From the NCBI GenBank assembly GCA_030390025.1, contig CM059432.1:8246001-8310000 (forward strand): 64,000 nt of DNA, read 5' to 3'. Each line of letters opens with the position of its first letter. The first letter of the stretch is position 1. Positions 1,911 to 46,352 of the stretch are shown piece by piece. Both the position numbers and the translations under genes were made by a program. Under the pieces are notes generated by a model. It was not told the origin of the DNA. It did not search any database and saw only the letters and a list, made by a program, of their open reading frames with translations. This DNA comes from Squalus acanthias (taxonomy: Eukaryota).

Positions 1911-2055
1911 AATCCAAAAGACAAGACTCACACTTCTGCCATGCAAGCTCAGCCTTGGCTCTGGGTATGATGCGGAGATGCCGGTGTTGGACTGGGGTGG
2001 ACAAAAGTGAGAAGTCGCACAACACCAGGTTATAGTCCAACAGTTTTATTTGAAA

Positions 2056-2093
2056 TCACAAGCTTTCGGAGCTGCTGCTCCTTCGTCAGGTGA
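2056..2093 (-). ncRNA. Minimal type-I hammerhead ribozyme motif (PLE family 1)
   Basis: UCAC-CUGACGA-A-GGAGC(AGCA)GCUCC-GAAA-GC-U-U-GUGA: core boxes, stem II, stem I, palindromic AGCU in place of stem III. Confidence 0.75.
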
Positions 2094-2095
2094 CG

Positions 2096-2132
2096 TCACC
2101 TGACGAAGGAGCAGCGCTCCGAAAGCTTGTGA
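2096..2132 (+). ncRNA. Minimal type-I hammerhead ribozyme motif (PLE family 1)
   Basis: UCAC-CUGACGA-A-GGAGC(AGC)GCUCC-GAAA-GC-U-U-GUGA, followed by AATAAA at 2138-2143. Confidence 0.75.
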
Positions 2133-2579
2133 TTTCAAATAAAACTATTGGACTATAACCTGGTGTTGTGCAACTTCTCACTTTTGGCTCTGGGTGACAG
2201 GGGCTTCCAGAGCATCACGTCACTCCTGCACTTTCTTCTTGCGCAGTGCAGTCGGAGCACTGAGGCGCAGTCCCAGGAGAGTGGCCTTGACTCCATAGGA
2301 GAGACTCCCACCACAGGCCGCAGCTGGCTCGCCCTAACCCCCACCCATTCTCTTCCCCACCCCCCACCCACCCCCTCCAGAATCTACCTGGGGGGCCACT
2401 GTTGGCAAGGCAGCCAGCCTAAATTAATCCTCTTCAAACCAGCGAACTGCGTCTGGGCACCCAGGTTGGTGTCCGCAGCTCACCGGAAGTACGCTGATGA
2501 GGTGCGAGGCCCAATCTCGGTCAAGCCTTGGTTGCCAGCTCCCAGCACTCAAAAACGGGCAAAACTTCAGTTCATTCAG

Positions 2580-5532: not shown

Positions 5533-8500
5533 TTAGGAGGTGTGGATGAGACGGTGCGGCGGTTTGATGAGCCGGCTGGAGCGGCTCTTGTAGGACGCCG
5601 GTGGACGTGGAACGGCCGGGCGTGAAGCAGCCGGGTGAACCGGCTTGAGGGCAGGTCGGCTGCGTGGAGGTGGACGAGCTACAGGGACCTGCTCACCGGG
5701 CTCCGAGTGTGCTGGCTTGAGTCGGTCAACCGACACTTTTTCAGTCCTGTCGCCCACTTGCAGGGTGAAAAATTTGTCCCCAGCCTGTAGCACCTTGTAG
5801 GGCCCATCATACGGGGGTTGAAGGGGTCCGCGGTGGGCATCGTGCCGGACGAAAACAAACCGCGCCTGGTGCAGGCTTAGTGGGACGTGTGAGGTGGATT
5901 CGCTGTGTCGGGCAATGGGCTCCGGGGCGAACTGCAGCGCCGGTGAGGCGAAGTTGTGGCGTTGCTGGTCGGCTGACCAGGGTGTCATGGCGGTGGGCAG
6001 GAACTCGCCGGGTACGCGCAGCGGCTGACCATACACGAGCTCTGCTGCCAATGCGTGGAGGTCTTCTTTAACCGCGGTGTGCAGGCCGAGGAGAACCCAC
6101 GGAAGTCGGTCGGTCCAGGCGCCGTCCTGGAGGCTGGCTCGAAGAGATGCCTTCAAGGATCTGTGGAACCGCTCACACAGTCCGTTGGCTTGGGGGTGGT
6201 ACGCTGTGGTGCGGTGAATGGTCACCCCGAGATTGCTTGCGACGGCGGTCCAGAGTTCAGAGGTAAATTGCGGACCTCTGTCCGACGTCATGTCGGAGGG
6301 GATGCCTGAACCGTGCGACCCAGGTGCTGACGAAGGCTCTGGCGATGTCGGTGGTGGTGGTGGTAGAGGTCAGTGGAATTGCCTCGGGCCAGTGTGTGGT
6401 GCGGTCAACGATGGTCAGCAAGTGCGTGTGGCCTTGCGACGGCGGCAGGGGCCCGACGATGTCCACGTGGATGTGGTCGAATCTCCGCGAGGGGACGGTA
6501 AACTCCTCGAGGGGTGCTTTCGTGTGTTGCTGTACCTTGGCCCATTGGCAGGCTAGGCAGGAGTTGGCCCAAGTGCGCACATCCTTGCGAAGGCCGCGCC
6601 AGACGAAGCGGTTGGCTACCAATTTGATGGATGCGCGGGCGCCGGGGTGGGAGAGGTTGTGGAGAATGTCGAATACGCTGGGACGACGGGCCGAGGTTGA
6701 CATAGGGATATGTCGCACTTGACCGTGACTGCGGTCGGGCCACAGGCGACGTCGGCCAGGCGTAGCCCTGGTAGGTTGGTGGGTGCGGAGAGCAGATCTG
6801 GGTCGGTGATCTGGTCTGCTGCGAGTTGAGCGTAGTCGACTGCTAGGTGTGCGGCGTGGATGGCGGGGCAGGAAAGGCAGTCGGCTACCGCATTGTCTCG
6901 GCCAGAGACGTGTTGGATGTCCGTGGTGAACTCGGACACTGCCGCGAGCTGGCGCTGCTGCCTGGCGGACCAGGGGTCGGTTGTCTTTGCCATTGCGAAT
7001 GTCAGGGGCTTGTGGTCGACAAACGCAGTGAAGGGGTGGCCCTCAAGCAAAAACTGGAAATGGCGGACCGCCAGGAACAGCGCGAGGAGTTCGCGGTTGA
7101 AGGTGCTGTACTTGACCTCCGGGGGGCGTAGTTGGAGGCTGAAGAAGGCAAGTGGTTGCCAGGCGCCGTCGACCCACTGCTCATACACGGCGCCAACCGC
7201 GTGGTCGGAGGCATCCGTGGTGAGCGCTACCCTGGCATTGGGCCATGGGTGCGCGAGCAGGGTGGCGTTGGCGAGCGCAGTCTTGGTGGAGTCGAAGGCG
7301 GCTGACGCGTCTGCCGTCCATTCGACCGCCATCTTGCCGCTCCTGCCCCGGAGGGCTTCATACAGGGGCCTCATGAGGGACGCCGCTTTGGGGATGAAGC
7401 GGTTATAGAAATTCACCATCCCGAGGAACTCCTGGAGGCCTTTGATGGTGGTGGGGCGGGGAAATTGTTGGACGACCTGCACCTTGGTGGGCAGGGGAAT
7501 GGCCCCATCATGGGTGATGTGGTGGCCGAGGAAGTCGATCTTGTCCAGGCCGAACTGACATTTGGCTGGGCTGAGGATGAGCCCGTGGTCGCTGAGGCGC
7601 CTGAACAGGATGCGAAGGTGTTCGAGGTGTTCCTGCTTGGAGGAACTGGCTACCAGGATGTCGTCCAGGTAGACGAACAGGAACTTCAGGTCCCGAAAGA
7701 CCGAGTCCATGAGCCGTTGGAATGCCTTGGCCACGTTTTTGAGGCCGAAGGGCATCTGCAGGAACTCGAACAGGCCGAAGGGGGTGATTACGGCCGTCTT
7801 GGGGATGTCCGCGGGGTGGACGGGGACTTGGTGGTAGCCGCGCACCAGGTCGACCTTGGAAAAGACTGAGCGGCCGGCCAGTCTAGCTGAGAAGTCCTGA
7901 ATGTGCGGCACGGGGTACCGATCAGGGGTGGTGGCGTCGTTGAGGTCGCAGGGGCGCCAACCTCCGCCTGGTTTGGGGGCGAGGTGGAGTGGGGGAGGCC
8001 CAGGGACTGTTGGAGCGGCGGATGATGCCGAGCTGTTCCATGGTGGCAAACTCGGTCCGCGCGATCTCTAGTTTGGCCGGGTCCAGCCTGCTGGCGTGGG
8101 CGTACACAGGGGGGCCTGTGGTGGGGATGAAGTGTTCCACCCCGTGTTTGGCGGCCTCCGCGGAGAAGGTCGGATTGGTAAGGGCCGGGAATTCAGCCAG
8201 AAGTGCCGAGTAGTCATCCGTGGCCCGGGCGTGGCACTGTGACGCCATGTCGGCGGGTTGACGGGGGGCCATGGCGCCCAGGATGGGGGACATGGTGTTC
8301 ATGTCCACGAGGCGGTGATGGGGGATGTCTACCAGTAGGTCGTGGGTGCACAGGAAATCTGCGCCGATGAGAGGGGAGAGCACCTTGGCAGTGATGAACT
8401 CCCATCGGTAGCGGCGACCAGCGAGGTCGAGGGTGACTGTCCGGGTGCCATACGTCCGGATTTCCGAGCCGTTAGCAGCAGCCAGCGCCGGTCCTCGTTC

Positions 8501-9322
8501 GCCCTTTTGGATGTCGAGGGAGGAGGCCGGGATGACGCTGTGCTGAGCTCCAGTGTCGCACAGGAACCGGCGGCCGGTTTTGTCATCCGTAACGAACAGC
8601 AGGGAGCCCGCGTGGCCCACGGCCCTCGCGGGGGCTGGTACGGGGGTGGACTTGAAAGAGCAGGGAGGTGTGCACCGTTGTGCCCTGGCGCCGAACTGTG
8701 CGTGGTAGTAACAGTGGCCCGGGTTAGTGGGGCGTGAAGGCCCCGTGGGCCTGGTGGCAGGCCCTTGTGGCCGCGTGGTGGCCGGTGAGGGGCGCGCCCA
8801 GGCATTGGCTGCCAGGTCCGGAGTGACGTCACGGCTGGAGTGAGCGGACAGCAGCTTGTTGGCCTCATCGGCCAGGGCTTCCAGGTTCGTGAGGCCGGAC
8901 GCCACGATCGCTGGGTGGATGCTGAGAGGGAGCTGGCGGATGAACAGCGTGCGGAAGAGGGATCCGGGTGGGCTCTCGTCGGTGAGGGAGAGCATGTGGG
9001 AGAGGAGGTCTGACGGTGAGGCATCACCGAGGCCTGGAAGGTCGAGGAGGTGGCAGTTCCGCTGATATGCCGAGGCCGTAAATTTTTTAAGGAGCGCTGT
9101 CCTGAGATGTGCGTACTTGCCTTCCTCTGGTGGGTTCTGCAGCGTTGTCCAAACATTCGAAACTACGGCGCTACCGAGTGATGTGACAAGATAGTCGTAC
9201 TTCGTCCCATCTGTGGTGATATTTCGCAGCCGGAAGCGAGATTCAGCTTCGAGAAACCAGGCTTCGGGCTGGTTTTCCCAAAACTCCGGCAGTTTCACGG
9301 AAACTGCGTTCGTGTCCGCCAT
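5533..9322 (-). pseudogene. gag-pol polyprotein, broken by about 3 frameshifts
   Basis: Gag VKLPEFW and CYYHx9Cx3C; protease DTGA; RT YLDD; RNase H TDAS; integrase HHCC, D,D,E and GPYKV; spread over ORFs 7922-9322, 6616-8049, 6257-6718, 5533-6291. Confidence 0.95.
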
Positions 9323-9347
9323 TGCAGTGCTCGGAATACGTTCTGAG

Positions 9348-9361
9348 CGTCAGGGTCACCA
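9348..9361 (-). promoter_or_regulatory. Primer binding site, tRNA-Trp type
   Basis: TGGTGACCCTGACG 1 nt after the 5' LTR; the tRNA-Trp PBS is TGGTGACCCCGACG. Confidence 0.85.
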
Positions 9362-9642: not shown

Positions 9643-11373
9643 AGCCGCGAATTTCCCAGCGGAGGAGGGATGGTAGCGGGAGAGCTGGTTCCCGGGTTCC
9701 AGTCACGATCCTGGCTGCAGCCACTCTGTCAAAGGGATTTTCCCTTGATTGGCCTTGTTAAGCCCCGCCCTGCAGGCTTTCCGGCCAGTTAACAGGAGGC
9801 GGGTCTGATGACGTCATTTGATGACGCGTCATCAGCCGGTTTCCTTAAAGGGACCACGGCCACATTGAGTTTGACAGTTGTTCTGTCAGTGTTTGACAGC
9901 ATTGAGGTGCTGCAAGCACTGACAAGCACTGCACAAAGGTGGACGCTTGCACCCAAGCTCTCCAATGACTCCCTCCATAAGCTTATGGAGGGAGTCACAG
10001 CACACAGGGAGGTTCTCTTCCCTTCCAAGGACGGAAGAGACCTCCCCAGGACACCAACGCAGCCTGGTTGCATATTGCACAGGAGGACAAAAGCAGGGGT
10101 GTCATCAGGAGTCCCTGGCTGCAGTGGTGCCAACCTTTCAATGATCTCAGTGGATCACTCAAACTCATCCTGCTGTGCCACTCAACACATCCCCATCACT
10201 CTGCCTTCCATACCCTACTCCTGCACATCCTTACTCACACCAACTTACCTTGCACCTCCACCCAAACCTTTCTATCTACTTTATCACTTCCCCATCTCAC
10301 TAGCCACCCCTCACATTGACCCTCATCCTACTGCAAACATATCAACTAACAACACACAAGGGTAGGCACTTGAGAGGTTTAGCCAATGTCCATGTGAAGT
10401 TTCTGGTAATGTGTTGTCCTACAGTGAAATCTATTTTTCCAACACTATCCCTTATTGGACAGATCTGAGCACACCTTGAGAAGTGTCTTCCTGAGTTCCA
10501 GTGATTGTTCAGTCATAACTTCCCCCTCCCTCCCCCGCGATAGTGATGTGTGTGCATGGAATGGCTTGGACATTAAAGGGATGCTTCACGGTGCTGGTGT
10601 GGGATGGTGTCAACCTGGCGCATCATGTGGCAGCCAGGGTTTACAGCGTCAAGTGAAGTAAATCTGGCCATGGTGATGCCATCGCTGGCTTCCCGGCCAG
10701 CAGTGTTGTCAGGGGCTGATGCCCTGTGTCCAGTGCAGCATCAGGTGATGGCGGAGAAGGTTGGTGATGTTGTTGGTGATGTTGGTGCTGGGGCTGATCG
10801 TGGAAGAATTCAGAGGACCAAGGTCTGATTTTTTCAAGGGCACCGATGTTGCTGCAATAGATGGCAGCTGCAGGTGAGATGACAGGAGCGATCTGTCAAT
10901 GGTGAGAGAGGTTGTTCCAATGAGGTGGCACTGGACATACAGTTGGCTCTAAACACTTGCAAGCTAAAGAAATATCTATATATGTATTACAAATGCAGTA
11001 ACCAACAGTTTCTGTGCTCTGAAACTGACCATCTGCAACATGGCATCCTTTCCACCACTTCTGCAGCTGTCAGCTTATCAGAAACATCAGAGCAGACTCA
11101 ACTCACACCAGGGTGAACAGCGGAGAACGTAAAATTGGAAGGAAGCCTCAAAAATAGTATTAAATTAGCTCTTAACAAGCCATTTAACAAACTCAATTGT
11201 ATCCCCCGCTGCTTGGTGTCGGGTCAGTTCTCCGCTGACAGACCCGACGCCTGGGAGACTCGCGTGGCTACGGGTTGACAGCGGGTGCCTACCCTACCCG
11301 CTGTCAATCATTGCTATTTTGACAGCGGACCCGCCTCCAAACCCGCCCTCTGAGCGCCGGCAAATTCGCGGCC
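9643..11373. mobile_element. PIF/Harbinger-like non-autonomous element with Myb/SANT remnant, inserted in a CR1 fragment
   Basis: TIR GCCGCGAATTT / AAATTCGCGGC; TTT on both sides; flanks 9606-9642 and 11374-11464 join into continuous CR1; frameshifted APKLSNDSL..LMEGV..REVLFP / AWLHIAQE..W.Q..FNDL at ~9940-10150. Confidence 0.75.
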
Positions 11374-11700: not shown

Positions 11701-14652
11701 TCATGTCCAATTTCCTGCCCGCTCCCCGTAACCCCTAATTCCCTTTACTTCTAGGAAACTGTCTATTTCTGTTTTAAATTTATTTAATGATGTAGCTTCC
11801 ACAGCTTCCTGGGGCAGCAAATTCCACAGACCTACTACCCTCTGAGTGAAGAAGTTTCTCCTCATCTCAGTTTTGAAAGAGCAGCCCCTTATTCTAAGAT
11901 TATGCCCCCTAGTTCTAGTTTCACCCATCCTTGGGAACATCCTTACCGCATCCACCCGATCAAGCCCCTTCACAATCTTATATGTTTCAATAAGATCGCC
12001 TCTCATTCATCTGAACTCCAATGAGTAGAGTCCCAATCTACTCAACCTCTCCTCATATGTCCACCCCCTCATCCCCGGGATTAACTGAGTGAACCTTCTT
12101 TGTACTGCCTCGAGAGCAAGTATGTCTTTTCTTAAGTATGGACACCAAAACTGTATGCAGTATTCCAGATGCGGTCTCACCAATACCTTATATAACTGCA
12201 GCAATACCTCCCTGTTTTTATAATCTATCCCCCTAGCAATAAAAGCCAACATTCCGTTGGCCTTCTTGATCACCTGCTGCACCTGCATACTAACTTTTTG
12301 ATTTTCTTGCACTATGACCCCCAGATCCCTTTGTACTGCAGTACTTTCCAGTTTCTCGCCATTAAGATAATAACTTGCTCTCTGATTTTTCCTGCCAAAG
12401 TGCATAACCTCACATTTTCCAATATTGTATTGCATCTGCCAAATCTCTGCCCACTCACCCAGCTTGTCTATATCCCCTTGTAGGTTTTTTATGTCCTCCT
12501 CACTTTCTACTTTCCCTCCCATCTTTGTATCATCTGCAAACTTTGATATGTTACACTCGGTCCCCTCCTCCAAATCGTTAATATAGATTGTAAAGAGTTG
12601 GGGACCCAGCACCGACCCCTGCGGAACACCACTGGCTGCTGGTTGCCAGTCCGAGAATGAACCATTTATCCCAACTCTCTGCTTCCTGTTAGATAACCAA
12701 TCCTCCACCCATGCCAGAATATTCCCCCCAATCCAGTGATTTTTTATCTTGAGCAATAATCTTTTATGTGGCACCTTGTCGAATGCCTTCTGGAAGTCTA
12801 AATACACTACGTCCATTGGTTCCCCTTTATCCACCCTGTACGTTATGTCCTCAAAGAACTCAAGCAAATTTGTCAGACATGATTTCCCCTTCATAAAGCC
12901 ATGCTGACTTTGTCCCATCAAATTATGTTTATCTAAATGTTCCGTTACTGTCTTCTTAATAATAGACTCCAAAATTTTACCCACCACAGATGTTAGACTA
13001 ACTGGTCTATAATTTTCAGCTTTCTGCCTACTACCCTTTTTAAATAAGGGTGTTACATTAGCAGTTTTCCAATCTGCCGGGACCTTTGCTGATTCCAGGG
13101 AATTTTGGAAAATTATTACCAAAGCATCCACAATCTCTATTGCCACTTCCCTCAAGACCCTAGGATGTAAGCCATCAGGTCCAGGGGATTTATCCGCCTT
13201 GAGTCCCATTATTTTACTGAGTACCAATTCCTTAGTGATTTTAATCGTATTTAGCTCCTCCCCCACTAGAGCCCCCTGTTTGTCCAGTGTTGGGATATTC
13301 TTAGTGTCCTCTACCGTAAAGACTGAAACAAAATATTTGTTCAGCATTTTTGCCATCTCCATGTTTCCCACCATTAATTTCCCAGTCTCATCCTCTAAGG
13401 GACCTACGTTTGCCTTAGCCACCCTTTTTCTTTTTATATAACTATAGAAACTCTTGCTATCTGTTTTTATATTTTTTGCTAATTTATTTTCATAATCTAT
13501 CTTCCCTTTGTTAATCAATCCTTTAGTTACTTTTTGCTGTCTTTTGAAGACTTCCCAATCTTCTATCCTCCCACTAAGTTTGGCTACCTTATATGTCCTT
13601 GTTTTTAGTTGGATACTATCCTTAATTTCTTTACTTAGCCACGGATGGCTGTCATTTCTTTTACACCCTTTTTTCCTCAGTGGAATATATATTTTTTGAA
13701 AGTTGTAAAATAACTCCTTAAATGAACACCACTGCTCATGTACTGTCTTACCCTTTAATCTATTTTCCCAGTCCACTTTAATCAATTCCGCTCTCATACC
13801 ATCATAGTCTCCTTTATTCAAGCTCAGTACGCTTGTCTGAGAACCAACCTTCTCACCCTCTAATTGGATATGGAATTCAACCATGTTATGGTCACTCATT
13901 CCAAGGGGATCCTTAACTAGGACATTATTAATTAATCCTGACTCATTACACAGGACCAGGTCCAAGGTTGCTTGCCCCCTTGTAGGATCAGTTACATACT
14001 GCTCAAGAAATCCATCCCTAATACACTCAATAAACTCTTCCTCAAGGCTGCCCTGCCCAATTTGATTTGTCCAGTTAATATGATAGTTAAAATCCCCCAT
14101 AATTATAGCTGTTCCCTTATTACATGCCCCAACTATTTCCTGATTAATACTTCTTCCAGCAGAGTTGCAACTATTAGGAGGCCTATATACGACTCCCACT
14201 AGTGTTTTTTTCCTTTTATTATTCCTTATCTCCACCCAAACTGTTTCATTATCCTGATCCTTTGACCCAATATAATTTCTCTGTAATTCAGTGATTCCTT
14301 CCTTTATTAACATAACTACCCCACCTCCTCTTCCTTCCTGTCTGTCCTTCCTGATTGTTAAATACCCTGGCATATTTAATTCCCAGTCATTGTCACCCTG
14401 CAGCCATGTTTCTGTAATGGCCACAAGATCATACCCATACGTAGTTGTTTGTACCGTCAATTCGTCTATTTTGTTATGAATGCTGCGTGCATTCAGATAA
14501 AGAACTTTTAAATATGTTTTGTGACAATTTATTCCTGCTTTTACCCCCTTTACTACTTTACCTTTATCTTTATATATTCTGTCCCTTCCTGACACGCTCT
14601 GGTTTTTAATTACCCCACTGCTACTTTGGTCTATTGCCTTCTCCGCTGACAT
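11701..14652 (-). pseudogene. CR1 ORF2 (APE endonuclease + reverse transcriptase), single premature stop at 12007-12009
   Basis: YLNARS, TETW, YRPP, GDFN, SDH; GVPQGSVLGP, FADD; reads FR*MRGDL where other copies read FRRMRGDL. Confidence 0.95.
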
Positions 14653-14690
14653 TTTTATTCTTTGCTCTCTTGAAACCTCCCCCCCACTAA

Positions 14691-15647
14691 TTAGTTTAAA
14701 GCCCTCTCTACAGCCCTAGTTATTCGATTCGCCAGGACTCTAGTCCCAGCACTGGCCAAGTGAAGTCCGTCCCAACGGAACAGCTCTCTCCTGTCCCAGT
14801 ACTGGTGCCAGTGTCCCAGGTAGCAAAACCCATTTCTCCTACACCAGTCTTTGAGCCACGCATTTAACCCTCTGATTTTATTTACCCTAGCCAAATTTGC
14901 TCGTGGCTCAGGTAGTAATCCAGAGATTACTACCCTAGAGGTTCTGTTTTTTAATTTGGCCCCTAGCTGCTCATACTCCCTCAGCAGAACCTCATTCCTT
15001 GTCCTATCTATGTCATTGGTACCAACATGGACCACGACAACTGGATCTTCCCCCTCCCACTCCAAGTTTCTCTCCAGCCCAGAGGAGATGTCCTTAACCC
15101 TGGCACCGGGCAGGCAACATAGCCTTCGGGACTCTCGCTCTCGGCTGCAAAGAACCCTATCTATCCCCTTAATGATACTATCCCCTACCACTACAACATT
15201 TCTTTTTACTCCCCCCACTTGAATGGCTCCCCGTACCGCAGTGCTGTGGCCAGGTTGCTCATCCTCCCTGCAGTCCCTGCTCCCGTCCTCACAGGGAGTA
15301 AGAGCCTCGAACCTGTTGGACAAGAGCAAGGGCTGCGGCTCCTCCAACACTACCTCCTGGATCCCCGTACCTGCCTCACTCGTAGTCACACCCTCCTGTC
15401 CCTGATCATGGGCTACATCTGAATTAGTTAATCTAATTGGTGTGACTACCTCCTGGAACACAGAGTCCAGGTAACTCTCCCCCTCCCTGATGTGTCGCAG
15501 TGTTTGAAGCTCGGACTCCAGCTCATCAACACGGAGCCGGAGTTCCTCGAGCAGCCAACACTTACTGCAAATGTGATCACCGTGAACATCAATGGTGTCC
15601 TCCAGCTCCCACATATTGCAGCAGTAACACATCACCTGCTCTCCCAT
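14691..15647 (-). CDS. CR1 ORF1: Cys motif, coiled coil and SGNH/GDSL esterase domain (318 aa, open)
   Basis: CYCC..CSKC, LEELRLRVDELESEL heptads, VGDS, GTND, DGLH. Confidence 0.92.
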   Translation of the reverse strand: MGEQVMCYCCNMWELEDTIDVHGDHICSKCWLLEELRLRVDELESELQTLRHIREGESYLDSVFQEVVTPIRLTNSDVAHDQGQEGVTTSEAGTGIQEVVLEEPQPLLLSNRFEALTPCEDGSRDCREDEQPGHSTAVRGAIQVGGVKRNVVVVGDSIIKGIDRVLCSRERESRRLCCLPGARVKDISSGLERNLEWEGEDPVVVVHVGTNDIDRTRNEVLLREYEQLGAKLKNRTSRVVISGLLPEPRANLARVNKIRGLNAWLKDWCRRNGFCYLGHWHQYWDRRELFRWDGLHLASAGTRVLANRITRAVERALN

Positions 15648-15716
15648 TCTATGTAATTAATTAAATTTATTATTATTTACCCTTTAATTAATTTAAATTA
15701 AAACAATACACTTCTG

Positions 15717-18805: not shown

Positions 18806-19300
18806 TCCCACTCTGACCTCTCTGTCCTCGGCCTCCTCCACTGTTCCAACGAAGCTCAACGTAAGCTCGAGGAACAGCACCTCATCTTTCGATTAGGCAC
18901 TTTACAGCCTTCCGGACTCAACATCGAGTTCAACAATTTCAGACCAGAACCTCTGCCCCTATTTTTTCACATGGCAGCTGTTGATTCTGCCATTCCCATT
19001 TACACCTCTTCTAGACTTATCTTTTGTTTCTTTACTAGTCCCATTACCATCTCCTTTTGCTTTGTACTATCATACCTTTTGTCATTCAATCTCTCCCGCC
19101 TTCCATCCTATCACAGACCTTCCCCTTTTGTTCTTTCCTCCCCTCCCCCCTTTCCTTGCCTCTGCATTTGCTTAAAATCTGTTACATCTCTAACTTTTTC
19201 CAGTTCTGACAAAAGATCATCGACCTGAAACTCTGTTTCTCTCTCCACAGATGCTGCCTGACCTGCTGAGTATTTCCAGCATTTCCTGTTTTTATTTCAT
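18806..19300 (+). mobile_element. PLE family 2, 3' fragment (GIY-YIG C-terminus, 3' UTR, decayed hammerhead at ~19203-19231)
   Basis: Translates HSDLSVLGLLHCSNEAQRKLEEQHLIFRLGTLQPSGLNIEFNNF. Confidence 0.85.
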
Positions 19301-19790: not shown

Positions 19791-19802
19791 TATATCAAAA
19801 AG

Positions 19803-19905
19803 AAATAAAAACAGAAAATGCTGGAAATACTCAGCAGGTCAGGCAGCATCTGTAGTGAGTGAAACAGAGTTAACGTTTCAGGTCGATGACCTTACGTCAG
19901 AACAG
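19803..19905 (-). mobile_element. PLE family 2 terminal repeat with hammerhead-like motif
   Basis: Minus strand GUU-CUGACGU-A-AGGUC(AUC)GACCU-GAAA-CG-U-U-AAC (one core change); further copies ~20515-20625, 43383-43425. Confidence 0.75.
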
Positions 19906-20649
19906 AGCTATGTCAAAAAGAGCTATGGTCCTAATACCAACCCTTGTGGGACACCACTGTATACTTCCCTCCAATTAGACAAAAGCAACTATTCAACGCT
20001 ATTCTCTTGTTATCTGTCCCTTAGCCAATTGTGTATCCATGCTGGCACTGCCCATTCAATCCCACAGACATGAATAGCATCAGCTCACTAATGTAAGCCA
20101 TGCCTGTAGCCTCCATTAAGACCACCTAGACAACCACCACTGCAGTCACAATGTAGACTGAAGCAATTTACAGTTCATTAAGGGTATCTGCAGATGACAT
20201 GGGTGTCCTTTGCATTTGCTGAACCTTTCACCTTCCACTGTTAGCTATAACTCGCTAGTATTTTGTTTACACCACCCATCATTAGTACAATTAGAAAAAA
20301 AGTAATAGGCCATTATACTAAGTAGGGCTTACACATCTGATTTTTTTAAGGATCGTTTTTCTCAGTGACCACTTTGCAAACCTAGTGTTTTGAATGACCA
20401 GTTTTTTTTTAACAGTTCCAAAATCCACCTTTTATTTAAGGCCTTACTGAGCAGCTGAAGGCAATGGATTGTGTGTGCGAGTGCTGGGAGACAATAAAGG
20501 CTGCTTACTACGATAGCAAAATACTGCGGATGCTGGAAATCCGAAATAACAACAGAAAACGCTGGAAAAACTCAGCAGGCCAGGCAGCATCCGTGGAGAG
20601 AGAAACAGAGTTAACGTTTCAGGTCTTACTATCTGTTTTTCTCTCTCAA

Positions 20650-21467: not shown

Positions 21468-22215
21468 GTGTCAGCTGTGGCTCAGTGGGTAGCACTTCTC
21501 CCCTCGGAGTCAAGAAGGTTGTGGGTTCAAGTCCCACTCCAGTGAGACTTGAGCACACAAAACTTAGGCTGACACTCCAGTGCAGTGCTGAGGGAGCTGC
21601 TGCACTGTCAGAGGTGCCGTCTTTTGTATGAGACGTTAAACCAAGGCCCCGTCTGCTCCCTCAGGTGGATGTAAAAGATCCCACGGCCACGATATCAAAG
21701 AAGAGCAGGGGATTTATCCCCAGTGTCCTGACCAATATTTATCCCTTAATCAAAATCATTAAAACAGATTATCTGGTCATTATCACATTGCTGTTTGTGG
21801 GAGCTTGCTGTGTGCAATTTGGCTGCTGTGTTTCCTACATTACAATAGTGATGAAATGAGGAGAATTTCTTCACTCAGAGGGTGGTGAATCTTTGGAATT
21901 CTCTACCCCAGAGGGCTGTGGATGCTCAGTCGTTGAGTACATTCAAGAATGAGATCGATAGATTTTTGGGCACTAAGGGTATAGGACAGGGTGGGAAAGT
22001 GGGAGTTGAGGTAGAAGATCAGCCATGATCTTATTGAATGGCGGAGCAGGCTCGAGGGGCCGAATGGCCTCCTCCTGCTCCTATTTCTTACGTTTTTATG
22101 TTCTGTGCTCAATGCCACATCTCCTCCAATACGACAGCGGCCTTACTTCAAAAGTATTTCATTGGCTGAAAAGCGCTTTGAAACATCCTGAGGTCATGAA
22201 AAACGTTATAGAAAC
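21468..22215 (+). mobile_element. Deu-domain SINE interrupted by a CR1 3' fragment (~21853-22105)
   Basis: tRNA-like head (TGGCTCAGTGG, GGTTCAAGTCC), Deu core, tail resumes after the CR1. Confidence 0.85.
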
Positions 22216-22219
22216 GTTC

Positions 22220-22770
22220 GTTCCTTTTTTCTTGCTCTCTTTTTCTTTCCTTCTTTTTTCTCTTTTTTCTTGCTCTCTTTTTCTCTCCTTCTTTTCTTTT
22301 CCTTTCTTTGTCTTTCCCTCTCTCTTTCTCTTTCTTTCTTTTCTCTTTCTTTCTTCCTTCCTTTCTTTCTTCCTTCCTTCCTTTCTCTCTTTCTTTCTCT
22401 CTTTCTGACTTTCTTTCTTTCTTCCTTCCTTCCTTCCTTCCTTCCTTTCTTTCTCTCTTTCTTTCTCTCTTTCTGTTTTTCTTTCTTTCTTTCTTTCTTT
22501 TTTCCTTCCTTTCTTTCTTCCTTCCTTCCTTTCTTTCTCTCTTTCTTTCTGTCTTTCTTTCTGTCTTTCTTTCTTTCTTTCTTTCTTCCTTCCTTCCTTT
22601 CTTTCTCTCTTTCTTTCTCTCTTTCTTTCTCTCTTTCTGTCTTTCTTTCTGTCTTTCTTTCTTTCTTTCTTCCTTCCTTTCTTTCTTCCTTCCTTCCTTT
22701 CTTTCTCTCTTTCTTTCTCTCTTTCTGTCTTTCTGTCTTTCTCTCTTTCTTTCTCTTTCTTTCTCTATTT
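22220..22770. repeat. Compound polypyrimidine microsatellite (TTTC/TTCC/TCTC)
   Basis: About 550 bp of almost pure C/T. Confidence 0.97.
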
Positions 22771-24439
22771 CAGCCAGCTCTTTCCACACAGTGTGGACTA
22801 TTGTGCGGTGAGGAACGTGCTCCTCTGTGCGGAACATGACAGCCCTCCTTTGTTGTACTTGAGACGGGAGCAGCTCGAGTGCCGCGTCTTCAGAAGGATT
22901 AGTTCAAGCGCAGAATATCCTTTCTTCCGCCATCAGGCTCCCAGCAGTTCCGAAGCGATAACGTGCCATGTCACAGGCTAGCTTCCCAACCTGGGTCGCA
23001 GGTCACGTGAGCAAGTGAGCTGACATTATAAAATCTTGAAATGAATCTGCCAAGCTAATGCAGCCTACAAGCCAGGTCTGTCGTATCTGTAATGGAACCT
23101 GAAAATCAGCCCTTAAGTCTATGTGCTTACCATTGCTAAACTCCCCAGTACTGTACTAAGTTCGACAGTCCGAAATTATGTCCCCATACCTTCAGCCGTG
23201 TTCTTTCATAGCAAAGTAAAGGTTTTATTACTGGACCGCTCAGCAAAGGGAATGTAATGAGTCGCCTTAATCTTCCATTTAATTCCCTCAGCCTCTAACC
23301 ATTCAGTCCCGCTGATCATTCAGTGGTTCTCCATCTTTCAGTCCAGAATTGAAGTGCTGTTTCTTCAACATTGAAATTGAGAAAGAATTTGAAGCTTAAA
23401 ATGTAAATGCCAAACCCTCATTTAAATTGCTCTCTCAGTTGTGTTTCATTTTTGGTAGCTGTGTGCTTACTGTAACAATTGCTGATTTTTGTCTTTTTCT
23501 TTCACCCGCATTAGCATGCAGATTGGCTCGGAAGAGTGCAAGTCGTTTATTTAGACCATTCTTCAGGGATGAGAGAGAGGAGAAAAAAAAGTAATTTATT
23601 TTTTCTGGAGTTTGGACATTACGGACACCCAAAATAATCTTTAAGGAAGATAGCGTGACGTGACTGGCCTACTCTGGCTTTGAAGGTCACTGAAGCAAAC
23701 CCCCCCCTTGAAACAGAGGGAATTAAGTCGAAGCGACATTTTCAACCCGTAGATTCCAATGAAACAGATAAAAGAAACTCAGTTATAAAGGGAACCAATC
23801 GAGTGTCTTTGAAATGCACTCGGGGCTAACCTTGTCTGAGCTTGAGGTGACAGAGCACAGAAAAGTGCCAAAGTAGCTTTTTTGAAGATAAATTGAAAAT
23901 TCATACCAGGGAGGAGTTACTTCAATTGCCTGCAGGAATGACAGTCGGATTCCTGCTGCAAAAAGCTACGACCCACGTTCTTGCTCTGGATCTCAATCGT
24001 TCTCACTAGTGATGAACCCTTTTCGTTATTTTGCTAGTGGGATCTCCCGTGATGTTGCTGAAGGTGCGTTCAATACTAAGCTGTTGTATGAGGACAGGGG
24101 CGTTATGCCATGTAGCGCCAGATGCATTATTCCGTTGCTAAGGTGGAGCGGCCTGTTTTTCGAGTCTCGTGTTGTCGGGCGTAGAAGACTTGAGGCCTAT
24201 TCCATGCCCCGTGCGCATTGTGCGCATGACTGTGCGGGTTCTGAACACTGACTGCACTTAGAACCTGTGCACAAACTATTACATAAAATTTACAGCACAG
24301 AAACAGGCTATTCGGGCCACGCCAGTGTTTCTGCTCCACACCAGCCTCCTCCCAGCCCTCTTCTTCTAACCCCATCAACATATCCTTCTATTCCTTTCTG
24401 TTTTACTTGTGATCACTATTGAACAAATTTGATAAATGA

Positions 24440-27000: not shown

Positions 27001-27408
27001 CTATATTTCATTTCAATACAGAAACTGGAATGTCAGATTTTGTATTGGGCACGTGAAACGTAGGCACTTGGATCATTTACTGGCCTTGAATGGAGACTCA
27101 GTGAAGTACCTCTGAATAAATGATTGAAATGAGGCAATTCATTAACAAAATACTTGCCAGTATATTCAATTCAATATATTGTACAGGAAACTCTCGTTTA
27201 AACGGCACCTAAATATCCGGAATTCTCTATTAACCGGCAAAATTCATACTCCGAAAACTCCTCTCAAATAACCGGCAATGTTTCCGAGTCAGAGTCCGAG
27301 TCTCCCGCGAACGCCGAGTTAGTCAGTGGGGGTAGTTCTCCAAAGTGCCACTACTCGGCTTCCTGGCGCTGTCGGAAGTCCGAACACTGCAATAACAGGA
27401 GTCTGATT

Positions 27409-27652
27409 CTCCCGCGCTGCCGGGAGTCTCTTCTGAGCCGCCATTTTACTGTGTGTCTCCCGCGCTGCTGGTAGTCTCTTCTGATACACCATTTTACTGT
27501 GTGTCTCCCACGCTGCTGGTAGTCTCTTCTGATACACCATTTTACTGTGTGTCTCCTACGCTGCTGGTAGTCTCTTCTGATACACCATTTTACTGTGTGT
27601 CTCCCGCGCTGCTGGTAGTCTCTTCCTAGCCACCATTGTTCTGTGTGTCTCT
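27409..27652. repeat. 48-bp minisatellite, 5 copies, inside the transposon 5' region
   Basis: CTCCCGCGCTGCTGGTAGTCTCTTCTGATACACCATTTTACTGTGTGT units at 27409, 27457, 27505, 27553, 27601. Confidence 0.95.
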
Positions 27653-27689
27653 CCATCTTTATCGGGAATTATCTCCCCCATCTTGCATT

Positions 27690-29441
27690 ATGGAATTCCC
27701 AAAAGCTGGTCCAAGCAAAAGGAAGAGAGTGGTCTTAACTTTAAAACAGAAAATCGAGATATGCCAACGACTAGAAAGGGGAGAGAAGCGTATCAATATT
27801 ATGAATGAATTCAAAATCGGTTCGTCAACAATCTACGACATCAAATCGCAGAAGGATAAGCTGCTCAAGTTTTATTCAAGCTCGGAGACATCTAAGAGTG
27901 TAGAGAAACGGCGTACGCTTCGTAAGCCTAAGCTTGAAGAGCTGGATACCGTGCTTTATGAATGGTTTTCTCTTAAGCGTTCAGAGGGTGTTCCAATTTC
28001 CGGACCCATGCTAATCGAGAAAGCAAAGGATTTCTACGAAAGGATGGAGCTCACTGACAAGTGTGCTTTCTCCGAGGGATGGCTAACGTGCTTCAAGTTA
28101 CGGCACGGGATACGATGACTCGATGTTTCCGGGGAGAAGAAATCAGCTGATCATGACGCCGCAGAAGAATACTGCGATTATTTCAATCGGATTGTGCAGC
28201 AACATGATTTGTCACCAGCACAGATATATAATGCCGATGAAACTGGCTTGTTTTGGAGGTTTTTGCCAGAATCAACGCTTGCTGGGGCTAGTGAGGCTAA
28301 TGCTTCAGGTTACAAGAAAAATAAAGATCGTGTAACCGTGATAACATGTGCGAACGCTGCTGGATCACACCGGGTTAAACTTATTGTTATTGGGAAGTAT
28401 AAAAATCCCCGTGCATTTAAAAATGTGAGGCACTTACCTGTTGAGTACAAAGCTCAAAAAAATGCTTGGATGGATAAGGAAATCTTCTCCGATTGGTTCC
28501 ATCATATTTTTGTTCCATCTGTGAGGGAACATTTCCATAAAATAGGGAAACCTGAAGATAGCAAATGCATTTTATTGCTTGATAATTGTAGAGCCCATCC
28601 GCATGAATCCGAGTTGGTTTCGGGACATATTTTCACCATTTATTTGCCACCAAATGTAACTTCTCTCATACAACCCATGGACCAGGGCGTTATCCAAAAT
28701 CTGAAGTGTCATTACAAGAAAGACTTCCTACGTAAACTGATAAGCCAAGATGACAATATTCATGCATTTCAGAAGGAATACAATATTAAAGATGCCATCT
28801 ATAATGTTGCATGTTCCTGGAACTTTGTGAAAGGTCACACTCTGAGGCAAGCCTGGCGCATATTGTGGCCTTCTGTAATGTTTGCTGAAGGTTCTTCTTC
28901 AGAGGAGGAATTTCATGGGTTCAATGTTCGTCCCAAGAAGAGTACAATAATGGAAATGGCTGGCATGGTGAAAAACCCTCTACGTCACCTCAGTGAAAGT
29001 GATATCGAGCAGTGGGTTGATGCAGATAGAGAAGTTGGTGTTGTGCATATGCTAAGTGATGATGAAATAATTGAGAATGTTTTGAATCCAAAGAAAGAAA
29101 AGGAAAGTGAGATGGAAAGTGAAGAGGATGATATTTCTGAAGAGAACAAGATTTCTTGGGCTAAAGCTGCAGAAGGATTTTCTTCAATCCTCCAATTTGC
29201 TGAAAGGCAGACTTGCTACTCTGCCCAAGAAGTTATGCAACTCCATATTCTGCATTCCACCTTTCTACAGAAAAGGCAAGAGTCCACTAAGCAAACTGAC
29301 ATCCGCAACATGTTTAAGAAAGCTTCCAAAAGAGTCGAAGCAGCGGAAGTGCCTGAAGAATCTGTGGAATCTGTGGAAATGCATGATCCTGATGACCCAG
29401 CTGGCACGGATATTCCTGATGAACCAGCTGACTTGGAATAA
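27690..29441 (+). pseudogene. Tigger-like transposase (psq/CENP-B HTH + DDE_1, DD32D), 583 codons with one in-frame TGA
   Basis: [50 protein letters not shown]; the two listed ORFs share a frame, split by TGA 28116-28118. Confidence 0.95.
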
Positions 29442-34600: not shown

Positions 34601-34786
34601 TACATAAGAACGTAAGAAAATAAGAAATAGGAGCAGGAGTAGGCCATTCGGCCCTTCGAGCCTGCTCCGCCATTCAATTAGATCATGGCTGATCTTCTAC
34701 CTCAGCTCCACTTTCCTGAACTATCCCCATATCCCTTGATTCCCTTAATATTCAAAAATCTATCGATCTCTGTCTTGAATATACTC

Positions 34787-36842
34787 ATGATGTGGAGATG
34801 CCGGCGTTGGACTGGGGTGGACAAAAATGAGAAGTCGCACAACACCAGGTTATAGTCCAGCAGATTTATTTAAAATTACAAGCTTTCGGAGCTGTCGCCC
34901 CTTCCTCAGGTAGAGTTACTGTGAGACAATCTACCAGAATTCACAGAATATAAACACAGAGAAAATGCATTCAATCTTTCCCTACATCAAAGACACACTA
35001 AGAGCACAGCCAAGACAATGAGATGTGTCCCAGGGGGTCCAACGCGTCAAAACACCTGCTGGCTGCATATCCTCTCCATTTGGGTTTGTTTCTTGTGTTT
35101 GTTTCTTGTGTTTGTTTTTTTTAAAAGCTGGAAAGACCGGCAACGATGTCAAGTTACGTTCTGTATCATGACATGAACCTGATATCCCGATTGAGGCCAT
35201 CCTCATGAGTGCGGAACTTGGCTATCAGTTTCTGCTCGATGAATTTTGCGTTGTCGTGTATCCCGAAGGCCGCCTTGGAGAATGCTAACCCACAGATCCG
35301 AGGCTGAATGCCCTTGACTGCTGAAGTGTTCCCCGACTGGGAGGCAACCCTCCTGCCTGGCGATTGTTGCGCGGTGTCCGTTCATACGTTGTCTCAGTGT
35401 CTGCATGGTCTCGCCGATGTACCATGCTCTGGGGCATCCTTTACTGCAATGTATCAGGTAGACAATGTTGGCCGAGTCACATGACTATGTACCATGTACC
35501 TGGTGGGTAGTGTCCTCACGTGTGATGACGGTATCTGTGTCCATGATCTGGCATGTCTTGCAGAGGTTGCCGTGGCAGGGTTGTGTGGTGTCGTGGTCGC
35601 TGTTCTCCTGAAAGCTGGGTAATTTGCTGCGAACGATGGTACTTTTGAGGTTTGGCGGCTGCTTGAAGGCGAGTAGTGGAGGCGTGGGGATGGCCTTAGC
35701 AAGGTGTTCGTCGTCATCGATGACATGTTGAAGGCTGCGAAGAACATGGCGTAGTTTCTCCGCTCTGGGGAAGTACTGGACGACGTAGGGTACTCTGTTG
35801 GTTGTGTCCCGTGTTCGTCTTCTGAGGAGGTCTATGCGGTTTTTCGCTGTGGCCCGTCGGAACTGTCGATCGACGAGTCGAGCGTCATATCCCGTTCTTA
35901 CGAGGGCGTCTTTCAGTGTCCGTAGGTGTCCATCGCGTTCCTCCTCGTCTGAGCAGATCCTGTGTATTCGCAGGGCTTGTCCATAGGGGATGGCTTCTTT
36001 AACGTGGTTAGGGTGGAAGCTGGAGAAGTGGAGCATCGTGAGGTTGTCCGTGGGCTTGCGGTAGAGTGAAGTGCTGAGGCGTCCGTCTTTGATGGAGATT
36101 CGTGTGTCCAAGAATGAAACCGATTCTGAGGAGTAGTCCATGGTGAGTTTGATGGTGGGATGGAACCTGTTGATGCTATCGTGTAGTCCTTTCAGTGATC
36201 CTTCGCCGTGGGTCCAAAGGAAGAAGATGTCGTCGATGTATCTGGTGTACAGCGTTGGTTGGAGGTCCTGTGCAGCGAAGAAGTCTTGCTCGAACTTGTG
36301 CATGAAGATGTTGGCGTATTGGGGTGCGAATTTGGTCCCCATGGCTGTTCCATGTGTTTGCGTAAAAAACTGGTTGTCGAAGGTGAAGACATTGTGGTCA
36401 AGGATGAAGCGGATGAGTTGTAGGATGGCGTCTGGAGATTGGCTGTTGTTGGTGTTGAGTACTGAGGCTGTCGCAGCGATGCCGTCATTGTGGGGGATAT
36501 TGTTGTAGAGTGCCGATACGTCCATCGTGGCGAGGAGTGTTCCTGGTTCAACTGGTCCATGGGTGCTGAGTTTCTGCAAGAAGTCTGTAGTGTCGCGACA
36601 GAAGCTGGGGGTTCCCTGTACGATGGGTTTCAGGATGCCCTCGACGTACCCAGAGAGGTTCTCACACAGGGTTCCGTTGCCTGATACGATAGGACATCCG
36701 GGTGTGTTGGCTTTGTGTATCTTTGGGAGGCAGTAAAAGTCTCCTACGCGGGGAGTACGTGGGATGAGAGCGCGTAGGATGTTTTGAAGGTCTGGATCGA
36801 AGGTCTTGATCAGTCTATTGAGTTGGCGGGTGTGTTCTTTGG
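34787..36842 (-). mobile_element. 5'-truncated Penelope-like retroelement (RT + GIY-YIG), family 1
   Basis: LPKIHK, DVSALY, GTAMG, YIDD, FLD, YRKPT; Cys motif CHGNLCKTC; NIVYLIHC..WYIGET..RQRMNGH after a TAG; TSD ATATACTC (34779-34786, 36843-36850). Confidence 0.95.
34877..34912 (-). ncRNA. Minimal hammerhead ribozyme motif in the PLE 3' repeat
   Basis: UAC-CUGAGGA-A-GGGGC(GACA)GCUCC-GAAA-GC-U-U-GUA, followed by AATAAA. Confidence 0.72.
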
Positions 36843-38503
36843 ATATACTCAACGACTGAGCCTCCACAGCCCTCTGGGGTAGAGAATTCCAAAGATTCAC
36901 CACCCTCTGAGTGAAGAAATTTCTCCTCATCTCAGTCCTAAATGGCTGACCCCTTATTCTGAGACTGTGACCCCTGGTTCTAGACTCCCCAGACAGGGGA
37001 AACATCCTCCCTGCATCTAGCCTGTCAAGCCCTGTAAGAATGTTTTATATTTCAATGAGATCACCTCTCATTCTTCTGAACTCTAGAGAATATAGGCCTA
37101 GTCTACTCAATCTCTCCTCATAGGACAATCCCCCCATGTGAGGAATCAGTCTGGTGAACCTTCGTTGCACTCCCTCTGTGGCAAGTATATCCTTCCTTAG
37201 CTAAGGAGACCAAAACTGTACACAATACTCCAGGTGTGGTCTCACCAGGGCCCTACATAATTGCAGTAAGACGTCTTTACTCTTATACTCAAATCCTCTT
37301 GTAATAAAGGCCAACATACCATTTGCTTTCCTAATTGCTTGCTGTACCTGCATGTTAACTTTCAGTGATTCATGTACAAGGACACCCAGGTCGCTCTGAA
37401 CACCAACATTTCCCAATCTCTCACCGTTTAAAAAATACTCTGCTTTTCTATTATTCCTACCAAAGTGGATAACTTCACATTTCTCCACATTATATTCCAT
37501 TTGCCATGTTCTTGCCCACTCACTTAGCCTGTCTATATCCCCCTGAAGCCTCCTTGCATCCTCCTCACAACTTACATTCCCACCCAGCTTTGGATCATCA
37601 GCAAATTGCTTTGCTGACCTGCGATGCTGCTTTTAATGATTTCTTCACCTGTATCCCTAAATCCCTTTGCTCTTCTACCCCATTCAGTTTCTTATTTTCT
37701 AAAGTGTGGGGGATGTTTCTCTTTTTCCTACCAAAGTGGATCACCTCACATTTATCTATGTTGAAGTTCATTTGCCACTTAACTGCCCGGTCTGCAAGTT
37801 TTCTAATGTCTTCTTGTATTTTGTTACATTCTTCCTCAGTGTTAGCTATACCCCCTAGTTTGGTATCATCTTCAAATTTTGATATTGAGTTCCTTGTTCT
37901 CAAGTCCAAATCACTAATGTAAATTATGGATAACAGTGGTCCCAGCACTGATCCTTTTGGAACTCCACTTTCCACCATCCTCCAATCTGAATAACTACCC
38001 TTTACCCCTACTCTCTGCTTTCTATTTTTTAAGACAAATTGCTGTCTATTCGGCTATTTGTCCCCTGACTCCACATGCCCTAACCTTTGTCACGAGCCGA
38101 CCGTATGGTGCCTTATCGAATATCCAAGTACATGACATCTACTACATTACCCTTGTCCACTCTTTCTGTTACCTTCTTCAAAGAATCCTATCAGGTTAGT
38201 TAAGCATGACTTAGCCTTACGGAATCCATGCTGACTATTTTTTAGCATATTTTCTGTCTCTAGATGCTCTTCTATCACTTCTTTTAGTATAGGTTCCAGC
38301 ATCTTTCCTATCACTGATGTTAAGCTGACTGATTAATATGTTTGGGGGGGTGGGGGGGGGGGGGGGTAGAAAGGAGGCAAGACTACAGGCATGTGCAACT
38401 CACCTTTAATTAGTGAAATTATTCAGATGAAGTCTCACATGGAATTTTATGACTCTGGGGGTGGATCCACCTCCCAGCAAGCACTTCACCATAAAAAGAC
38501 ATG

Positions 38504-41576: not shown

Positions 41577-42045
41577 TTTGTCTCTTTATCTCTCCTGCCT
41601 TCCATCCTATCACAGACCTTCTCTTTTGTTCTTTCCGCCCCTCCCTCTTTTTTCCTAGCTCTGTACTTGCTTATGAGCTGTTAAATCTCTAGCTTCTTTC
41701 ATGTTCTGATGAAAGGTCGTCGAACTGAAACATTGACTCTGTTTCTCTCTCCACAGATGCTGCCTGACCAGCTGAGTATTTCCAGCATTTTCTGTTTTTA
41801 TTTCAGATTTCCAGCATCTGCAAGATTTTGCTTTTCTTTTTAAGCAGCGTCTATTTAAACAGAGTCTCCATGAACTACAGCAAACAGGACTCATGACCCA
41901 AACTACAGCAACTCCTCCCGATTAAAAGCAGGATTATTTCTCCAGCAAAATTCAGTGAGTGGAGGATAGTTACATAATACAAATTATGCGTGTAAAATCA
42001 ATCCCAGTTACTTACAGCAGTGTGGTCTCAAGGCATGATTGACAG

Positions 42046-45541: not shown

Positions 45542-46207
45542 CTTAATACCGTTGCCGAACAAAAATCTATCAATCTCAGTTTTTAAATCTTCAATTGTCC
45601 CCCAGTGTCAGCAGCTTTTATGGGGCAGAGAGTTCCAGATCTCCACTACTCTTTAACTGAAGAAGTGCTTCCTAACATCACCCCTGAATGACACAGCTTT
45701 CATTTTAAAGTTATGCCCCATTGTTCTAGAGTCTCCCAACCAGAGGAAATAGTTTCTCTCTATCGACCTCCCTCAGAACTGTGCTGATGTCAGCCTAGGT
45801 ATAGCGTGGTGTTCCCCAGGGGTCGGTACTAGGACCACTGCGTTTCTTGATAAATATTAATGACTTGGACTTGGGTGTACAGGGCACAATTTCAAAATTT
45901 GCAGATGACACAAAACTTAGAAGTATAGTTAACAGTGAGGAGGATAGTGATAGACTTCAAGAGGACATAGACAGGCTGGTGGAATGGGCAGGCACGTGGC
46001 AGATGAAATTTAACGCAGAAAAGTGCAAAGTGATACATTTTTGGTAGGAAGAACGAGGAGAGGCAATGTAAACTAAAGGGTACAGTTCTAAAGTGGGTGC
46101 ATGAACAGAGAGACCTGGGGGTATATGTGCACAAATCGTTGAAGGTGGCAGGGCAGTTTGAGAAAGTGGTTATAAAAGCATACGGGATCCTGGGCTTCAT
46201 AAATAGA

Positions 46208-46334: not shown

Positions 46335-46352
46335 TTCATAAATAGAGTCATA

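Follow-up and report, generated by a model that had tools for sequence, protein, structure and literature searches.

The fold-back unit at positions 1967–2186 of the window (by which we mean the whole 64-kb stretch of DNA that was analysed) carries one hammerhead motif on each strand, and it raises two questions. First, is it a distinct mini-retroelement that is mobilised as a unit, as an earlier note on this DNA had claimed, or a by-product of the insertion of a larger retroelement? Second, what is the role of two hammerheads placed head-to-head? We propose that the unit is probably an abortive, extremely 5′-truncated insertion of a Neptune-type Penelope-like retrotransposon (PLE) that arose via twin priming, and not a separately propagating element. 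The two hammerheads would then be passengers, silenced in read-through RNA by the antisense arm that precedes them.

Structure of the fold-back unit

The palindrome, arms, tail and target-site duplication (TSD) described in the earlier note are all present (Table 1). The unit consists of 220 bases, with arms of 93 and 92 nt, a tail of 35 nt and a TSD of 12 bp; the duplication had been given as 9–12 bp because the first three bases of its right copy (2184–2186) also match the arm. The two arms are two substitutions and one indel apart. The central 42 nt form a perfect palindrome, which is the longest perfect fold-back within the 64-kb window. Other short perfect palindromes, with arms of 12–19 bp, lie at 9966–9997, 46593–46636, 46999–47037 and 204–232, the last two of which share sequence and may be the ends of one repeat family. 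The AATAAA hexamer that had been noted after each ribozyme is likewise found on both strands.

The TSD and the three differences between the arms argue against a hairpin artefact of the assembly. None of the listed contigs of four public runs spans the unit locus 1967–2186 or its empty site, and there is no empty-site joint among the best 15 of 102 joints. One end of the unit is an unpaired tail of 35 nt and the arms are the 3′ end of a retroelement, which sets it apart from a MITE or a fold-back DNA transposon. Comparison of the pLTR with 176 homologues by tblastn gave only one antisense-frame match in one predicted protein and one weak match of low identity. An ORF at 2133–2669, which runs outward from the right arm, matches nothing in Pfam and was rejected as a gene.

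Table 1. Features of the fold-back unit and of its relatives in the window.
Feature	Position	Strand	Basis
Left copy of the 12-bp TSD	1955–1966	.	Direct-repeat comparison
35-nt PLE tail (3′ end of the element), unpaired, on one arm only	1967–2001	-	End coincides with that of the copies at 34787 and 46333; contig flanks diverge at 1967
pLTR arm that adjoins the tail, sense on the minus strand, 5′-truncated 5 nt upstream of the hammerhead core	2002–2094	-	Sequence comparison
AATAAA hexamer	2138–2143; mirror 2045–2050	+; -	Read from sequence
Minimal type-I hammerhead motif, 4-nt loop II variant, predicted cut 2060/2059	2054–2094	-	Pattern and folding
Head-to-head junction, centre 2094/2095, central CG non-native for the family	2090–2099	.	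Contig letter counts
Minimal type-I hammerhead motif, 3-nt loop II variant, predicted cut 2128/2129	2095–2133	+	Pattern and folding
Inverted, tail-less pLTR arm, last 3 nt common to the TSD	2095–2186	+	Sequence comparison
Right copy of the 12-bp TSD	2184–2195	.	Direct-repeat comparison
Hammerhead pattern matches	2061–2089; 2100–2127; 34881–34909; 46263–46296	-; +; -; -	Pattern scan
5′-truncated Neptune-type PLE: RT, CX4CxxC linker, GIY-YIG (in-frame stop, late frameshift), 3′ UTR, pLTR with hammerhead, tail; no inverted arm	34788–36842	-	Sequence, Pfam, homologues
Third copy: full inverted arm (46208–46303) joined to a tail of about 28–30 nt only	46208–46334	+	Sequence comparison

Hammerhead motifs in the two arms

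The pattern CTGANGA-N10-30-GAAAGCT was searched over the 64-kb window with 100 shuffles as the control, and it gives four matches in the window versus a mean of 0.10 in the shuffles. The earlier reading of a minimal type-I hammerhead on each strand holds: each arm contains a match, stem I (5 bp including one G–U) and stem II (5 bp) can form in both, and the predicted cuts sit after a CUU triplet. The would-be stem III is a loop-less palindrome that is able to pair only between two molecules, with a predicted duplex energy of -6.5 kcal/mol. The motifs show the features given for the minimal hammerheads of metazoan PLEs (PMC4209133), namely a CUGANGA/GAAA/UH core, a helix I of 4–5 bp, an extra unpaired nucleotide before helix II, G10.1–C11.1, palindromic positions 15.2–16.2 and no loop 3. 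Helix II has 7–8 bp in the Schistosoma families described there and 5 bp in the present unit. The minimal hammerheads of PLEs are reported in the same source to show no cleavage as monomers and low cleavage as dimers.

Among the four hammerheads of the window, the core does not vary and every stem II has 5 bp, capped by loops of 3, 4, 4 and 9 nt. Paired states are found in 92.5% of 40 cells, with one compensatory change (in stem I) and one wobble change, and with n = 4 sequences the covariation is not significant relative to shuffles (107/500). Rfam returns nothing at the gathering score over the whole window. At E ≤ 10, the region 1900–2300 gives 10 sub-threshold matches, none of them to a hammerhead family, the best being generic hairpin (miRNA) models at 41.6 versus 93 bits for the gathering score. 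The nucleotide at the predicted cleavage site 2128 is variable (U/C) in about a third of the depth of one of the organisms sampled below (organism A) and stays within the NUH rule.

A Neptune-type element in the window as the likely source of the arms

An element of the RT/GIY-YIG type had been named as the likely source of the arms, and the comparison agrees with this: over 125 nt, the arm with the tail matches the 3′ end (34787–34911) of the PLE at 34788–36842 with 91% identity, and both end at the same base. This PLE is 2.05 kb long, has its own 9-bp TSD (34779–34787 and 36843–36851) and sits inside a CR1-like repeat. Its translation matches RVT_1 (E 6.9e-9) and, past an in-frame stop and below the Pfam cutoff, GIY-YIG (E 7e-4); the CX4CxxC linker between RT and EN and the two Cys inside GIY-YIG are both present. 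Since a CX2-5CxxC linker is described as defining the Neptune and Nematis PLEs (PMC8557442), the linker motif would mark the element as Neptune/Nematis type, an assignment that takes the two groups together. The closest proteins are from sharks, up to 92% (Heptranchias perlo records), which points to a cartilaginous fish as the host.

The same pLTR and the same tail end occur in three copies in the window, each with its own TSD (12, 9 and 12 bp) and with a different architecture. The three outcomes are a copy with no inverted arm (34788–36842), one with an inverted arm and a tail only (46208–46334, with a 12-bp TSD at 46196–46207 and 46335–46346) and one with two full arms (1967–2186). In the second of these, the inverted arm holds about 95 nt that are missing from the tail-bearing arm.

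A pyrimidine tract ending in AG, which resembles a splice acceptor, lies in the long copy at 34919–34929 (minus strand), 9 nt upstream of the hammerhead core. In Penelope of D. virilis, the 5′ end of helix I is where the intron ends (PMC4209133).

Other copies in the contigs of four public runs

Contigs of four public runs were aligned to 1750–2450. X1 and X5 come from organism A and X6 from organism B, while X17 is guessed to be RNA of organism A; X17 gives no cover at 1918–1941 or in most bins of 2326–2450, and it is neutral on expression. The family is very abundant, with a summed contig depth over the unit (which does not equal copy number) of 1e5–1e6 versus about 14 in the unique flank bin of X1. 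Its tail ends sharply at 1967, where 155, 127 and 21 contigs of X1, X5 and X17 leave into unlike flanks. In each of the four runs, the tail (bins 1966–1989) is less deeply covered than the arm (bins 2014–2037), which is the pattern to be expected when the tail is present on some of the ends and absent from others. Past 1967, the nearest letters are common to the consensus of X1, X5 and X17, so that some copies run a few bases further through an ATG, and the tail may end at the start codon of an ORF.

Loose ends are found at 2093/2096 in at least 50 + 35 contigs of X1, 43 + 31 of X5, 70 of X6 and 6 + 12 of X17 (best 24 of 1047 rows). Each run yields a loose-end consensus in which the native upstream sequence of the ribozyme is pyrimidine-rich and non-palindromic, and on this ground an intrinsic pLTR palindrome was rejected as the origin of the unit's centre. 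The exact CG centre is seldom seen: in X1, the non-T depth of 64k at 2095 is covered by 71k of native-type A at 2094. Two contigs bridge the centre by at least 31 letters on each side, and they carry 7 and 9 gap letters.

Of 102 joints, the 15 with the best support are without exception head-to-head, and no two are alike. Their short-arm ends are scattered over 2116–2189 (in mirror coordinates), and the longer-arm ends fall within 2087–2102 in 12 of the 15. A rough binomial estimate for this clustering gives p from 4e-4 to 5e-7, which is overstated: depth decided which rows were taken, short insertions are favoured by short contigs, and the letters in between are unknown in 6 of the 12. Among the best 12 of 74 rows, all seven head-to-head joints with printed letters end just inside 2096 or at most 9 nt upstream of it. 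A zone as narrow as 2087–2102 is not what random truncation would produce. The joint 2059-to-2096 reaches a depth of 648/938 versus 13–14 in the unique flank bin 1918–1941, so some identical junctions are multi-copy, through repeated formation or amplification. This joint does end at the predicted cut site of the ribozyme; however, a 4-nt microhomology, which is stem I itself, fits it equally well, and the other 14 short-arm ends lie elsewhere, so arms ending at the cut site were rejected as a general explanation. In the joint 1999-to-2092, the inverted arm is longer than the tail-bearing arm.

Scattered fold-back points had been named beforehand as the observation that would tell against a mini-element. 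The scatter was largely found, the best 15 of 102 joints being all different, but the long-arm ends cluster. As for the distinct mobilised mini-retroelement itself, the claim was not supported by the contig data: the fold-back point is not common to the copies, the native upstream sequence is non-palindromic and the CG centre is rare.

Exact-pattern scans found no relatives among metagenome contigs, genome contigs or, with a 20-nt pattern, viral contigs. A 15-nt pattern gave 120 viral loci, which were dismissed as chance matches, their best blastn alignments to the unit being at most 38 nt long with E ≥ 0.002.

Folding of read-through RNA

In a read-through RNA from either strand, the antisense arm is transcribed ahead of the ribozyme, and a near-perfect 90-bp hairpin of about -163 kcal/mol is predicted. 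Within the palindrome, the closing pair of stem II forms with a predicted probability of about 4e-15, and this holds for truncated nascent prefixes too; in the single arm as it naturally occurs in the copy at 34788–36842, the value is 0.99. Because the antisense arm comes first and stem II is so improbable, the ribozymes are predicted to be inert in read-through RNA. It had been suggested that a long hairpin would compete with ribozyme folding; the hairpin is indeed predicted, but "competes" is too mild a word given these values for stem II. The suggestion that the hairpin could be a substrate of ADAR or Dicer is plausible in principle on the predicted fold.

A proposed twin-primed insertion and its alternatives

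How might the unit have formed? In L1 twin priming, both target strands prime on the element RNA, which gives an inverted 5′ segment, a junction with microhomology or a small deletion, and a TSD; the two segments of such L1 inversions barely overlap. The copy at 46208–46334 looks exactly like an inversion of this kind. Unit 1967–2186 differs from L1 inversions in its two copies of one 93-nt stretch and in having its second start at a fixed distance of 35 nt from the end. We propose that two staggered nicks, 9–12 bp apart, would each have primed a cDNA on pLTR RNA, with one cDNA beginning at the end of the tail (1967) and the second at the equivalent of 2186, 35 nt inward of it. In this unit both cDNAs would have reached just upstream of the hammerhead, a point that is probably either a strong stop or the 5′ end of an RNA initiated in the pLTR. 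They would then have been joined head-to-head, with the TSD created by fill-in. A tail-primed cDNA that stopped early would give the copy at 46208–46334, and one strand alone that primed and ran far would give the copy at 34788–36842. Two priming events are supported because the inverted arm, both in the copy at 46208–46334 and in the joint 1999-to-2092, has sequence that is absent from the tail-bearing arm.

This scheme has a biochemical counterpart. The purified protein of PAc, a Poseidon PLE of the anole, nicks and extends both target strands in vitro; its RT begins at two internal sites whose spacing equals the tail, the protein is predicted to be dimeric, and hammerhead cleavage is dispensable in vitro (PMC11167929). 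These properties may carry over from the Poseidon clade to a Neptune-type element. A tail set by two RT start sites and a hammerhead near the end of the pLTR are common to PAc and the present family. Targets of PAc are AT-rich, and two of the three TSDs in the window are AT-rich as well. The two differ in that the hammerhead of PAc overlaps the start of an ORF (PMC11167929), whereas the pLTR of the Neptune-type element here has no convincing match to a PLE ORF among 176 homologues.

For the stop of the long arms at the 5′ edge of the ribozyme, the candidates are run-off at a transcription start in the pLTR, stalling of the RT at the ribozyme fold, and ascertainment. The native upstream sequence in the zone of the long-arm ends presumably fits an initiator-like motif. 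In D. virilis, Penelope has an internal promoter in its pLTR (PMC2377424).

The single indel between the arms bears on the number of templates. It lies in loop II and equals two family-wide loop-II variants, whose depths at 2073 versus 2128, as far as contigs were assigned to the better-fitting arm (inferred from the low depth at 2147, the private site of the right arm and mirror of 2016), are 2.7M versus 2.0M in X1 and 1.3M versus 1.0M in X5; X6 of organism B has almost solely the 3-nt form (849 versus 1.6M). Arms that carry the two variants suggest, on the strength of one indel, two RNA templates, and recurrent RT slip or gene conversion would also explain the difference. A tentative and rather doubtful elaboration is that two pLTR RNAs would be held together by the intermolecular stem III on a dimeric PLE protein, that each nicked target strand would prime on its own RNA, and that both cDNAs would run off at the transcription start just upstream of the ribozyme. 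If this were true, the hammerhead would serve mainly to dimerise RNA and not to cleave it, and the "inverted pLTR + tail" signature would be a consequence.

Snap-back self-priming is an unlikely route. Here the cDNA from the tail to the 5′ end of the RNA would fold back, or an antisense RNA would prime itself, and would copy itself up to the second start site. A perfect central palindrome of 42 nt with a non-native CG centre is what such a process would leave, self-priming on an antisense template has been proposed for head-to-head palindromes of PLEs (PMC3846280), and for the near-symmetric unit taken alone the process is possible. Snap-back cannot, however, yield the copy at 46208–46334 or the joint 1999-to-2092, in which the inverted arm is the longer one. 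It also predicts arms that are identical at birth, whereas the indel matches the loop polymorphism of the whole family.

Still less probable is a self-propagating, non-autonomous fold-back family, in which transcripts of the palindrome, started for instance at its centre and running outward or produced by read-through, would be re-inserted in trans by the PLE protein. Copies of such a family would share both their ends and their junction; in the contigs the tail end is common, but the best 15 of 102 joints all differ, the exact CG centre is rare, the two contigs that bridge the centre carry gap letters, and many contigs run on into the non-palindromic native sequence upstream. In addition, the predicted hairpin of -163 kcal/mol would bury the tail-less start site. 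The points in its favour are the very high abundance of the family, the clustering of long-arm ends at the 5′ edge of the ribozyme, the depth of some joints, which makes them multi-copy, and two precedents: the pLTRs of PLEs are enough in cis to allow mobilisation in trans (PMC3846280), and tandem retrozymes derive from PLEs and are non-autonomous (bioRxiv 10.64898/2026.07.22.740005).

Use of the locus by the host, with dsRNA from the palindrome passing to ADAR or Dicer and silencing the PLE family in trans, is highly improbable: a near-perfect hairpin is predicted on either strand and small RNAs against Penelope are described in rotifer and Drosophila (PMC3846280), but any inverted repeat would fold likewise, the arms have diverged at three sites with no sign of selection, and the miRNA matches in Rfam lie far under the gathering score.

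Relation to known insertions and ribozyme elements

Returning to the proposed abortive twin-primed insertion, the pattern itself has already been described, since inverted pLTRs with a tail and a TSD, palindromic junctions and opposite-strand hammerhead pairs are all published in three sources (PMC3846280, PMC8557442, PMC4209133). For complex insertions such as Pen2a of Adineta vaga, Arkhipova et al. (PMC3846280) report an inverted pLTR, a 31-bp tail at one end, TSDs of 8–10 bp (with a 9-bp example) and abundant palindromes at head-to-head junctions. According to Craig et al. (PMC8557442), an inverted 5′-truncated copy and a tail of 30–40 bp are typical of PLEs, and inverted pLTRs and 3′ extensions are listed among their peculiarities in PMC8969392. 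Unit 1967–2186 shares with the complex insertions of EN+ PLEs (PMC3846280, PMC8557442) the pLTR homology, the inverted, 5′-truncated copy placed head-to-head, the palindromic junction, the tail of 30–40 nt at one end (35 nt here) and a TSD of variable length (about 9–12 bp). It differs in that the ORF and the body are wholly gone and just two pLTR ends of ~93 nt are left. Most likely, the unit is the smallest form of the known "inverted pLTR + tail" insertion, derived from a shark Neptune-type family.

Minimal hammerheads were described by Cervera and de la Pena in the pLTRs of fish Neptune, Poseidon and Xena elements, with thousands of solo motifs per genome, and dual motifs 100–700 bp apart on opposite strands were ascribed to truncated PLEs (PMC4209133). 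The passages on which this account draws make no mention of sharks. Close pairs on opposite strands are thus a feature of metazoan PLEs as well as of the present unit, in which the two cores are only 10 nt apart versus the 100–700 bp quoted. Non-LTR retrozymes (PMC7229834; bioRxiv 10.64898/2026.07.22.740005) resemble the unit in being small and non-coding, with type-I hammerheads derived from the pLTRs of PLEs. They differ in that they are head-to-tail tandem arrays with hammerheads on the same strand and can release circles (bioRxiv 10.64898/2026.07.22.740005), whereas the unit is head-to-head. A retrozyme needs at least two same-strand hammerheads in head-to-tail tandem, and the unit, with one hammerhead per strand, was rejected as such.

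In reviews, the way in which PLEs make inverted pLTRs and tails is still called undefined (PMC8557442). A literature search for the twin-priming account or for palindromic non-autonomous PLE units returned nothing on point by title or abstract start, with incomplete coverage that does not imply absence from print. The structure itself is ordinary PLE debris, and its value lies in the natural data set to which it belongs. Shark genomes seem to hold very many such minimal products, whose arms and junctions can test the making of inverted pLTRs and tails. If the arms within a unit often came from different subfamilies, there would be two RNA templates per integration, and the dimeric hammerhead would gain a role. 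Short, near-perfect palindromes in such numbers could also have a bearing on genome instability and on the dsRNA load.

Other repeats in the window

The window overall is repeat-rich vertebrate DNA. A Gypsy-like LTR retrotransposon body lies at 5533–9349 (minus strand), with DUF7041, RT, RNase H and integrase in several frames. A near-intact LINE of the CR1/L2 type at 12007–15656 (minus strand) has an ORF1 with a GDSL esterase-like domain and an ORF2 of 900 aa with endonuclease and RT. The transposase at 27360–29441 (plus strand) is Tigger/pogo-like (CENP-B_N, HTH_Tnp_Tc5, DDE_1), is split by one stop at 28116–28118 and is preceded by six 48-bp tandem units (27360–27650). Long microsatellite tracts of the (CTTT)n/(GAAA)n type at 22150–22900 and 54540–55150 give rise to spurious low-complexity ORFs.

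A second repeat family with a hammerhead-like core is found at 41660–41830, 19161–19299, 19802–19904, 20517–20625, 43375–43427 and 53483–53622. Its core is best formed at 19900 (minus strand), where stem II differs and the stem-III palindrome is CG. An ORF that resembles the C-terminus of a PLE endonuclease, with no Pfam match, precedes the copy at 19161. Two pieces of this family, 53483–53549 (minus strand) and 53564–53622 (plus strand), lie head-to-head 14 nt apart and form a similar inverted junction.
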